64,000 nucleotides of DNA from NCBI RefSeq assembly GCF_016026235.1, contig NZ_CP065613.1. One strand, given 5' to 3'. Shown one piece after another: positions 14,501 through 17,500 of this stretch (the first letter of the stretch is position 1; the number at the start of each line of letters is the position of its first letter). Origin of the DNA: Escherichia coli. GTDB taxonomy: Bacteria; Pseudomonadota; Gammaproteobacteria; Enterobacterales; Enterobacteriaceae. Made by a program: the position numbers.

Positions 14501-17500
14501 TTCCTCGTTACCAGTGCCGTCACTATGACGGTTAAACAGATGACGATAAGGGCGATTAACATCGCCTTTTGCTGCTTCATAGCCTGCTTCTCCTTGCCTT
14601 TCGGCACGTAAGAGGCTAACCTACATGTGTTCAGCATGGATTGAGCCTCAGATTAATGTTAAGCGTCTTGCAGGACGCGTAATGTTAACTGGGGCTTTTC
14701 TCTATCTGCCTTTTGGTGTTCATGCCTGAGACAGATAGCCTCAAGCACCCGCAGTCATTCTACTTAACTAAGATTTCCCTGCAAACCGTTTTTGTCCGGC
14801 ACAGTAAATATCCAACTAAACCAATAGCGTTCGCTGTATTTACCGCCAGTATTCAATGCACATGACCGCCATGAACACCCCTAAAAAAAGGGCATTTATA
14901 TGTCCAAACATTAATATCAAAACATCAATTTTTTCCATATACCTTGCTGTGAAGATGATGGGCATACATGATGCGAACAACCAGAACGCAACAAACAAAA
15001 ACTGCAATGCGTTTTTCATTATTCCCCCTACAATCAATGTGCAATAACATTTAAACACACCTCAATTTGGCCGGACATATAAATATCTAAACCAGAAAAA
15101 ATCACTTACATAGCGTTACAAACTCTTTAGTCTAAATACTCATCGTAAAACATTCCCCATACTTATCAGTCCGTTCCGCGCCAGGTAGCTTATTGCCTTA
15201 TCTGGCAACCTATAATCAGGTTTCCGCTTTTTCAGTTGGCTGGTCGTTTAACCGACATAGTTAACCCATTAATCTGGTTGCCGGATGCTGGTGGATTTTC
15301 GCGTTTTAGTTGTTCATAAAAGTGCACAGCTTTAACCAGTTCTTCTGATGTAACCGGGACTGGTGGGGCAGTGAATAAGGCCTGAATTTCATAGTTCGGC
15401 CTGTCGTTACAATCCTCTTTTTTCGGTACATATTTCCAGTCACCAACCCACAACTCCCCCTGAGAGTCCATAACACCTTTTTTCACGTAGCGATATCGCC
15501 ACGCTATCGGCTCTGCTTCCAGCGATGCCCGTGCAATTTTGAATAACTCGCCCTCTACTCGCGCCATCCCTGAATTGGGGTGGCATTTCGTAATCGCTAT
15601 TTTTAATTTGGCTTCTTCGATTAATTGTTCTTTTGTTAATTCAGTCATTTTCATTACCGCCCTTTCAGGCGGCCTCCTGATGTTCTGAGGGTGCAGAAAT
15701 CCCTCCGGTTAAGGATTAAATTTTATTTGCTGTGCTAAATTTAATTATTCAGTTTTTATTCCTGCTCTCAAAACAGCCTCTGCCATTCTGATATCCGGAT
15801 TTTCTGAAATCATCTTTTCCGGCGAGTCGCAATCACCACCACATTCAGTTATGCGTTCATGACCAAAACGAATTGTGGTTTTGTGCGCATTAATCATTTG
15901 TGTAAGCGCATCTGTCAATTCTGCAATGCGTTTGTCTTTAACTTCCAGCTCTTTCAGTAAAGCCAGTACGTCAGGATCGCTAACATCAACGACGGTTACG
16001 CGCGATTTCAGGTAATGCTCATCCGCAAAAGTTCGACCAGTTTTAAAATATCCATCATCCCCCTCACCTGTGCAGGCATACACAATATGCGTTCTGGAAA
16101 ATATGCGCTGTATCGACATTTCATCGCCACAAACAGGACATTCCGGCACCTGAATTGGTGAATAACGTTCACGTAATGCCTGGTAATTAGTCTTGCACAC
16201 TGGCTGTCTCCTGAAAAATCACCGCATGCCCCAGTTTCTCCGCCAGCGCCAGTTCTGCCTTAGCGCCTGCTGACCGCTGCCAGCCTTTCAGCATGTAAAT
16301 CGCATCCACACAACGAATCATCGCCATGCAGATATCCATGTACTGCGGCTGTGTCAGCCCGTCCGGAAGTACTGCCGGGTTTAAGACGGTATGCCCTTCC
16401 CGTTTCAGTTCCTCTTCCGCATTGTGAAACGCCTCACGGTTGAAATTTTTATACCCGGTCATTGGACCGGCGATATAGACTCTCACCCTCACGCCATCAC
16501 CTCCTGAAAATTACCCTGATAAAACGACAATATGCGCTGCATAACTTCGCTCTTCCGGCACTCGCGACAGATTATGTTTAGGCGACTGTCGTAGCGACGT
16601 ATTTCTCCGTCAGGTAATGACCAGATAAGGTCCGGATCAACCGCAGATGGTTTCTTCAGCTTTGCCCTTGAGAGCTTTTTACGGGCATTTTGCCAGTCCT
16701 TACGCGCCTGTTCAGACGGGAATAACCCGTAACCAGAGTTGTATACATCGCCACTGGCAACCAGCTCTCTGGCCAGAACGCTCATCAGATATCTTGTTGC
16801 CCCAGTTTTAGCTTCCAGTTGTCGTAACGTCTCGCGCCCACTCTGGCGTACGAGTTCAAGAACCTGCCCTTTAATTTTTTCCCGCTCTTCTTGTGTAAAA
16901 ACTTTTGCCACAAGCCCTCCTGAAAATTACCTCATGACCAGAAATTAACACTTACCCCCTGAAGCCCGGCGGAATTTCGTTATCCGGTTCAGAAATATGA
17001 TTCACACAACGCTGGTTGTTCGTGCCGCTTACCGGGAGCAACCAGGGGTTCTCAAAATTCCGGTCCGGTCCAAAAAACGTCGTCGCTCGCTGAACAAATT
17101 CCGTTCCCGTTTTCCCGGTAGCCGCCAGGTATCTTGCGTAACGCCTCACGCCATCCAGCATGGCCTCTGGTGGCACCCCCTCGCGTAATCTGGCCTTCCA
17201 GGCACTGAAAGCGGATTTCTTCGGGTTTGCCCCGGCACGCAACGGGTACTCCCGCCAGACCTGTTCGAACACATCCGGATAATCCACTCGTCCCACAGAC
17301 TGCCCGGTGTTTTCCGGGACTACCCGATCGGCTTCCCGCTGAATGGCGGAATCGGCTTCAGGCTGCTGCAGTTGGTGTGATTGCTCCGGACTTGCGGTCA
17401 TCACCTGCTGCACAGCGCCCGAATCGGCTTTCAGCGCATACGCTGAATCGGCTTCCGGTGTCGTGCCTGCTGGCTGACCTGGCTCGACGGTCTGAACATC

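Follow-up and report, generated by a model that had tools for sequence, protein, structure and literature searches.

A small gene of the DUF4406 family in a prophage of Escherichia coli is proposed here to encode a 2′-deoxynucleoside 5′-monophosphate (dNMP) N-glycosidase or phosphodeoxyribosyl-transferase, which would act on the pool of nucleotides while the phage grows lytically, and not a classical nucleoside 2′-deoxyribosyltransferase (NDT). We give this reading a probability of about 0.5. The gene lies at 16187..16492 on the minus strand of a stretch of 64,000 nucleotides of contig NZ_CP065613.1 (assembly GCF_016026235.1), the whole of which is called the window in the following. The catalysis, the substrate and the biological role of the protein are what we infer from its family, its predicted fold, the conservation of its residues, its position in an operon and a gene-neighbourhood link found in other phages.

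The open reading frame (ORF) starts with GTG (16492-16490), has 101 codons and stops with TAA (16189-16187), and was identified by the ORF listing, Pfam, PHROG and homologues alike. Its product of 101 amino acids matches Pfam PF14359 (DUF4406) over the full length (E = 9.1e-38; a score of 129 bits, with the cut-off at 22; positions 2-91 of the 91-position profile), and it also matches PHROG 355, named ‘nucleoside 2-deoxyribosyltransferase’, with 5e-48. A recorded protein of Shigella boydii, likewise 101 amino acids long, is 99% identical, and PGAP labels the corresponding ORF of related E. coli genomes as ‘DUF4406 domain-containing protein’. The Pfam and PHROG matches are far past chance, and the ORF is confirmed as a genuine and intact prophage gene. 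It is an ordinary member of a family which has already been annotated. An earlier description of the window, made by reading the sequence alone (the sequence-only reading), had assigned the gene to DUF4406 and had named a profile match to an unrelated family as the result that would refute it; the profile search returned DUF4406 instead, so that the assignment stands. In NCBIfam the protein has no match. A small uncertainty concerns the start codon, as initiation at the second GTG (codon 3) would match the N-terminus of most homologues, which is MK/RxYIAGP.

The structure was predicted with AlphaFold2 on an alignment of 35 sequences. The model reached a predicted local distance difference test (pLDDT) value of 89.8 and a predicted template modeling (pTM) score of 0.82, and its topology is b1(4-8)-a1(15-31)-b2(35-37)-a2(48-59)-b3(64-67)-a3(75-87)-b4(90-93), followed by a disordered tail of 8 residues. 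A Foldseek search of this model against the PDB gave the NDTs of T. brucei, L. mexicana and C. thermalis as the best matches, together with human DNPH1, MilB and BcmB, at template modeling (TM) scores of about 0.7-0.76. According to the model, the protein is a truncated form of the NDT fold, namely its Rossmann-like alpha/beta core, which is built from four strands and three helices. What it lacks is the final strand and helix, which are used by the characterised NDT-fold enzymes at the dimer interface.

The residues expected at an active site of this superfamily were located by means of a family profile of 50 diverse DUF4406 sequences. Compared with the PDB sequences, this profile matched the T. 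brucei NDT with an E value of 1.2e-4 and, less strongly, BcmB, BlsM and MilB. A family profile was required here, as a single-sequence search of the PDB with the window protein returned only spurious Mediator-29 matches with E values of about 1. Residue frequencies were determined from 244 aligned homologues, and the invariant set also from 35 and 50 homologues. The window protein carries all of the family-invariant residues (G9, F22, S74, and E80) as well as the near-invariant ones (Y6, P39, P43, Y51, W71, G76, and A77).

Glu80 (codon 16253..16255, minus strand) is the predicted catalytic nucleophile. It aligns to the corresponding glutamate of the T. brucei NDT, BcmB, BlsM, and MilB and to Glu103 of DmtZ, and it is present in 242 of the 244 homologues. 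Tyr6 (codon 16475..16477, minus strand), the predicted tyrosine of the catalytic triad, aligns to the YIAGP motif of the T. brucei NDT and is the counterpart of DNPH1 Tyr24, DmtZ Tyr6 and MilB Phe17 (PMC10603095, PMC12884076). The position is occupied by tyrosine in 224 homologues and by phenylalanine in the other 20. As in the NDT superfamily, Glu80 is found where the helix following the third strand begins, and Tyr6 at the end of strand 1. Ser74 (codon 16271..16273, minus strand), which lies six residues before the nucleophile and is predicted to bind the 5′-phosphate, is invariant (244/244). It aligns to the serine of the ‘SPGTHxE’ motif in MilB, BcmB, and BlsM and to the aspartate of the NDT motif ‘PDCGTAFE’. 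The spacing of six residues between Ser74 and Glu80 equals that of S98/E104 in DNPH1 and of S97/E103 in MilB (PMC10603095). In DNPH1, the triad consists of Y24, D80, and E104, and the phosphate is held by S98 together with S128′ of the partner subunit; in MilB, Ser97 binds the phosphate, and the exchange F17Y shifts the preference toward deoxyribose (PMC10603095).

The third position of the triad deviates from the superfamily. There, an Asp or Asn in the helix before strand 3 serves as general acid, and the window protein has Cys55 (codon 16328..16330, minus strand), which aligns to the asparagine of the T. brucei NDT and to Asn77 of DmtZ. Column 55 contains cysteine in 198 homologues, aspartate in 20 and other residues in 26. 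Aspartate is found in the phages phi297, RTH11, Aminay, Ariel, Wildcat, Monty and Lego as part of a Y-[LV]-R-x-D motif (ALRRD in Lego). In 151 of the 244 homologues, Cys55 occurs together with Asp53 (codon 16334-16336 in the window, minus strand). Cysteine at this position marks an enterobacterial and Vibrio clade, nearly always with Asp53, and the divergent phage members have Asp55 and mostly Arg53. In the Cys55 clade, the general acid may be shifted, or a thiol may take its place, judging from the alignment. T. brucei PDT and DmtZ have Asn in place of the general-acid Asp, and in both of them this is compatible with activity (PMC12884076).

On this basis, the following mechanism is proposed. 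The N-glycosidic bond of a dNMP would be cut by double displacement, in which Glu80 would attack C1′ and form a covalent deoxyribose-5-phosphate-enzyme intermediate. Tyr6 would orient Glu80 and disfavour substrates with a 2′-OH group, and the 5′-phosphate would be held by Ser74 and the GPM(T/S)G loop. After the base has left, the intermediate could be resolved either by water, which would make the protein an N-hydrolase like DNPH1, or by another base, which would amount to a phosphodeoxyribosyl transfer as catalysed by DmtZ. The gene would be transcribed together with the early/replication operon, and its product would sanitise or remodel the pool of dNMPs while the phage DNA is replicated in the lytic cycle. 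A dATP/dGTP pyrophosphohydrolase encoded next to DUF4406 would be the source of the dNMPs in many other phages. As the prophage of the window has no such partner, its substrate would be dNMPs derived from the host or from exonuclease activity.

Several groups of characterised enzymes resemble the window protein in different respects. DmtZ of phage Ghobes (AOE44404.1) was shown experimentally, in a study from 2026, to hydrolyse dAMP to adenine specifically and to transfer deoxyribose 5-phosphate to 2-aminoadenine; its triad is Tyr6/Asn77/Glu103, the exchanges Y6A and E103A abolish the activity, and it acts after the deoxynucleoside triphosphate pyrophosphohydrolases DutZ and DUF5664 (PMC12884076). 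Like DmtZ, the window protein is phage-encoded and NDT-like with a residue other than Asp at the general-acid position, a ‘PDG..Q’ loop is found in both, and DUF4406 genes share with dmtZ of the PurZ0 (Z-genome) phages a neighbourhood of the pyrophosphohydrolase type. Unlike the window protein, DmtZ has 161 amino acids and five strands. DNPH1 (also called Rcl, 2′-deoxynucleoside 5′-phosphate N-hydrolase 1) is longer as well, with about 130-170 amino acids against 101, has Asp80 where the window protein has Cys55, and possesses a last strand and a helical extension giving Ser128′ to the partner subunit, a segment for which the 101-residue protein has no equivalent; the pairwise sequence match to DNPH1 is not significant. 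The CMP N-glycosidases MilB, BcmB, and BlsM are larger proteins from antibiotic-biosynthesis contexts and have Phe where the window protein has Tyr, a difference related to the preference for ribo- or deoxyribonucleotides (PMC10603095). A further relative, DUF1937 (PF09152), is represented by a hypothetical protein of P. aeruginosa (PDB 1t1j) with 17% identity; this family is also uncharacterised, and it provides no functional information.

The neighbourhood of DUF4406 genes in other phages points to dNMPs as well. In Pseudomonas phage phi297, a gene for a dATP/dGTP pyrophosphohydrolase (PF04447) is located directly upstream and ends at the DUF4406 start (L094:2501-3315), and in mycobacteriophage Aminay a PF18909 gene follows directly downstream of DUF4406 (L004:2009-3189). 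PF18909 genes were also found two genes away in Wildcat and four genes away in Ariel, the latter with a MazG-like gene between. In the Xanthomonas jumbo phage RTH11, an annotated NTP pyrophosphohydrolase gene abuts DUF4406 and a dCTP deaminase gene lies two genes further on (L087:2982-4303), and in Gordonia phage Monty a ‘pyrophosphatase’ is encoded four genes from DUF4406. Abutting partners are of the PF04447 type upstream and of the PF18909 type downstream, often with overlapping start and stop codons; further cases are the loci L111, L112, L145, L149, L154, L158 and L168.

The frequency of this arrangement was determined for 80 IMG/VR loci each of the phi297 clade and the enterobacterial clade. 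In the phi297 clade, 20 of the 80 loci contain a PF04447- or PF18909-type ORF, nearly all of them directly adjacent to DUF4406, and all ten partner ORFs that were sampled were confirmed by Pfam. After the near-identical phi297 group had been collapsed to one lineage, the partner was directly adjacent in 9 of 11 lineages. If the partner could occupy any of about 16 gene slots within ±5 kb with equal chance, adjacency would be expected in about 12% of cases, and the corresponding P is about 3e-7 by our own rough binomial arithmetic. Among the enterobacterial loci, eight of the 80 have a PF04447-like ORF, 1-2 kb downstream. As far as the literature examined shows, neither the adjacency of DUF4406 and pyrophosphohydrolase genes nor the Cys-for-Asp substitution has been reported.

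It is possible, although we regard it as rather doubtful at present, that phages with ordinary DNA widely use a pathway of two enzymes, of which the DUF4406 protein would generally be the second. A dATP/dGTP pyrophosphohydrolase (DUF550/PF04447, DUF5664/PF18909 or MazG-like) would then make purine dNMPs, from which the DUF4406 protein would strip the base or swap it for another. The DutZ-DmtZ route would be one special case of this pathway, and the enterobacterial clade would use an unprecedented Tyr/Cys/Glu triad.

Several proteins and loci were noted in which both activities may be joined. The viral BFVD entries A0A6J5LQ71 (216 amino acids) and A0A6J5S4N9 (462 amino acids) show identities of 38% and 32%, respectively, to the DUF4406 model, and both are named ‘dATP/dGTP diphosphohydrolase N-terminal domain-containing protein’ in UniProt, after the PF18909 domain. 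They are likely candidates for Rosetta-stone fusions of the two activities. In a high-GC viral contig (L119:4132-5330), no stop codon separates the DUF4406 ORF from the C-terminal portion of a PF04447-like ORF in the same frame, and the N-terminal PF04447 part is in another frame. This could be a fused gene broken up by a sequencing frameshift, or else a gene in decay. Among 266 retrieved DUF4406 proteins, no fusion with DUF550 or DUF5664 was found.

A number of observations weigh against the proposed dNMP-directed activity. The protein has no C-terminal extension, the segment by which DNPH1 provides its second phosphate-binding serine (S128′) and NDTs complete the active site of the neighbouring subunit. 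Cys55 replaces Asp/Asn at the general-acid position, so that the activity could be altered or lost. The residue equivalences come from profile alignments and a predicted model, not from inspected coordinates. A partner of the PF04447, PF18909 or MazG type was not detected in the window prophage, and partners are absent from most loci of both clades, namely from 60 of 80 in the phi297 clade and from 72 of 80 in the enterobacterial one. The relation to DmtZ is also distant: the comparison of the DUF4406 profile with Ghobes DmtZ by hhalign pairs E80 with E103 and C55 with N77, but is not significant (E = 0.11, probability 0.5%), and DmtZ has no PF14359 match, its sole Pfam match being a weak one to PF05014. 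No PurZ/DpoZ-type context is evident in the lambdoid prophage, and as to the PurZ0/DutZ context of DmtZ, neither an adenylosuccinate-synthetase nor a dUTPase family was present among 25 of the 35 Pfam families of the prophage ORFs.

Three other explanations have to be weighed against the dNMP-directed enzyme. The name in PHROG 355 and many phage annotations suggest a genuine NDT (EC 2.4.2.6), which would exchange bases between free 2′-deoxynucleosides for salvage. NDTs (PF05014; e.g., from L. leichmannii, T. brucei, and C. thermalis) are the best Foldseek matches, the YIAGP motif with Tyr6 and the nucleophilic glutamate are common to both, and Pro39 aligns with a conserved proline, which is typical of transferases (PMC12884076). 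However, the protein has no PF05014 match at E ≤ 0.01, the 5′-OH-binding Asp that NDTs carry six residues before the nucleophile is the invariant Ser74, as in nucleotide-specific hydrolases, and the C-terminal module which completes the NDT active site is missing. Because of these three features a nucleotide substrate with a 5′-phosphate is favoured. In addition, the recurrent neighbours produce dNMPs and not deoxynucleosides. We therefore consider an NDT in the strict sense very improbable. The term ‘nucleoside 2-deoxyribosyltransferase-like’ in the sequence-only reading, for which structure prediction had been proposed as a check, is borne out by the AlphaFold2 model and its matches as a description of the fold, but the same three features argue against the name as a statement about the specific activity.

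Unlikely, but somewhat less so, is an enzyme of counter-defence or signalling that would cut the N-glycosidic bond of a ribonucleotide, an immune signal or a toxic nucleotide (NAD- or ADP-ribose-derived, cyclic, or a modified chain terminator) instead of ordinary dNMPs. PADLOC contains no family matching the protein at E ≤ 1, and searches of the literature on phage NDTs and anti-defence turned up nothing specific. Neither a Pfam match to TIR domains nor a structure closer to TIR than to the NDT fold, as expected for a TIR-domain NADase, was found. Moreover, Tyr6 and Ser74 fit deoxynucleotide hydrolases best, and across lineages the gene occurs in modules for replication and nucleotide metabolism next to dATP/dGTP pyrophosphohydrolases and not next to known anti-defence genes. 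A similarly low probability is assigned to the view that the proteins of the Cys55 clade are catalytically impaired and function as a nucleotide-binding or regulatory subunit or as a sponge, e.g., for the co-translated DUF977 protein or for the replication machinery. The replacement of the canonical general-acid Asp by Cys in 198 of the 244 close relatives would agree with this, as would the translational coupling to DUF977, the constant position after the replication module and a truncated fold lacking the second-subunit elements. Within the Cys55 clade, however, Glu80, Ser74 and Tyr6 hardly vary at all, a constancy that would be difficult to account for if the proteins were not catalytic; the Asn at the equivalent of position 55 in T. 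brucei PDT and DmtZ is compatible with activity, and the upstream partner varies between loci (DUF977, small ORFs or a helicase).

The prophage carrying the gene is a Rac-like lambdoid element, which is integrated beside mtfA and followed by yeeJ. On the minus strand, the order of transcription is a Cro-like helix-turn-helix gene and a YdaT-like gene, opposite a RacR-like repressor gene, then the genes for the replisome organiser, DUF977, DUF4406, an Ead/Ea22-like protein, a PHROG-660 protein, a Hok-family toxin, DUF968, RusA and antiterminator Q, and finally the lysis and head genes. The DUF4406 gene is located between the replication genes and rusA/Q, in the equivalent of the nin region, where the sequence-only reading had also placed it. 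The replisome organiser (16952..18115, minus strand; PHROG 1701, 6e-143), an O-like/DnaD-like helicase loader, marks the replication module just upstream, and its counterpart at the related E. coli locus L001 is annotated as ‘phage replisome organizer’. It is followed by the DUF977 gene (16489..16911, minus strand), a member of the same operon also known as YdaW, ‘LygF’ or Ren-like (PF06163, 3.2e-30; PHROG 142).

The DUF4406 start codon overlaps the TGA stop codon of the DUF977 gene in the sequence GTGA (16489..16492, minus strand), and a Shine-Dalgarno sequence AGGAGG (16500..16505, minus strand) is found 7 nucleotides 5′ of the GTG. As read from the sequence, this overlap suggests a translational coupling of both genes. 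The overlap is identical at L001 according to the PGAP annotation (7488-7793 and 7790-8212). At the 3′ end, the DUF4406 gene overlaps by 14 nucleotides with the downstream ORF for the Ead/Ea22-like protein (15745..16200, minus strand; PF13935, 2.2e-20). Due to the overlaps at both ends, the gene is packed into the operon. Neither promoter-like nor terminator-like sites flank it, nor is there a shift in GC content around it. This argues for a gene of the early rightward operon and not a self-contained moron, and for the same reasons a defence moron expressed in the lysogen was set aside as a candidate. In all 80 enterobacterial loci, the DUF4406 gene directly follows the replication module (O-like, DnaC/IstB-like, DnaB, DUF1627 or DUF977), and the individual neighbours are mosaic across the same loci.

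The importance of these findings lies at the level of the DUF4406 family and not of the window gene, since the family is among the commoner uncharacterised small phage proteins. An exhaustive HMMER search yielded 12,108 clusters at 50% identity (E ≤ 1e-3), which are mostly of phage or prophage origin, a word-indexed search gave 585 homologues of the window protein (E ≤ 1e-3), and by tblastn the family was found in 519 phage records (Vibrio, Arthrobacter, Gordonia, Mycobacterium, Pseudomonas, Aeromonas, Rhizobium and others). No functional literature on DUF4406/PF14359 was found. The labels on these proteins are inconsistent and include nucleoside deoxyribosyltransferase, deoxycytidylate deaminase, MazG-like pyrophosphatase and hydrolase. 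Cote gp55 (L002:2477-2845), labelled deoxycytidylate deaminase, Ariel gp162 (L003:2477-2857), labelled MazG-like pyrophosphatase, and Aminay gp56 (L004:2009-2803), labelled hydrolase, are all DUF4406 proteins by Pfam. Apparent fusions with ‘dCMP deaminase’ and ‘MazG’ in phage annotations turned out to be mis-annotated stand-alone DUF4406 proteins by the same analysis. The GenBank label of DmtZ itself (Ghobes gp53, L005:42692-43177) is deoxyuridine triphosphatase.

The present analysis provides a specific hypothesis for DUF4406, in which the protein acts on dNMPs as an N-glycosidase or transferase and in many cases has a dATP/dGTP pyrophosphohydrolase as its partner. If this is true, the inconsistent annotations could be corrected, the biology of Z-genome phages would extend to phages with canonical genomes, and a very small phosphodeoxyribosyl-transferase scaffold would be available for biocatalysis.

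Some members of the family are longer. In ten of these homologues, the N- or C-terminal extensions contain no Pfam domain, and their PHROG matches are of unknown function only. Five metagenomic DUF4406 proteins (P0163, P0157, P0200, P0141, and P0170) have repeated Trp-rich modules at the N-terminus, e.g., ‘...F[TI][KE]WP...DGWFW...’, and these extensions are likewise without Pfam matches.

Further features of the window were recorded besides the DUF4406 gene. The Hok/Gef-family toxin ORF of the nin-equivalent region (14425-14637, minus strand) contains an embedded sequence, MKQQKAMLIALIVICLTVIV..., which is hokD-like; it is followed by a strong terminator-like hairpin (14356-14339, minus strand). 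Two long ORFs on opposite strands (18141-18599, plus strand, and 18283-18843, minus strand) overlap in the interval that separates the YdaT-like gene from the gene of the replisome organiser. L001 has no gene at the corresponding place, and the reality of either ORF is doubtful. A Pfam scan of the prophage ORFs (within 1-27300) revealed a PaaA2/ParE toxin-antitoxin pair and a DDE transposase within the prophage, possibly at 20123-20604 on the plus strand. The prophage ends with a tyrosine integrase gene adjoining mtfA (peptidase M90) at about 25155-27203. Beyond it, an ORF of 2643 amino acids (27742-35673, plus strand) corresponds to an adhesin with Ig-like domains annotated in E. coli genomes, which we take to be of the YeeJ type.

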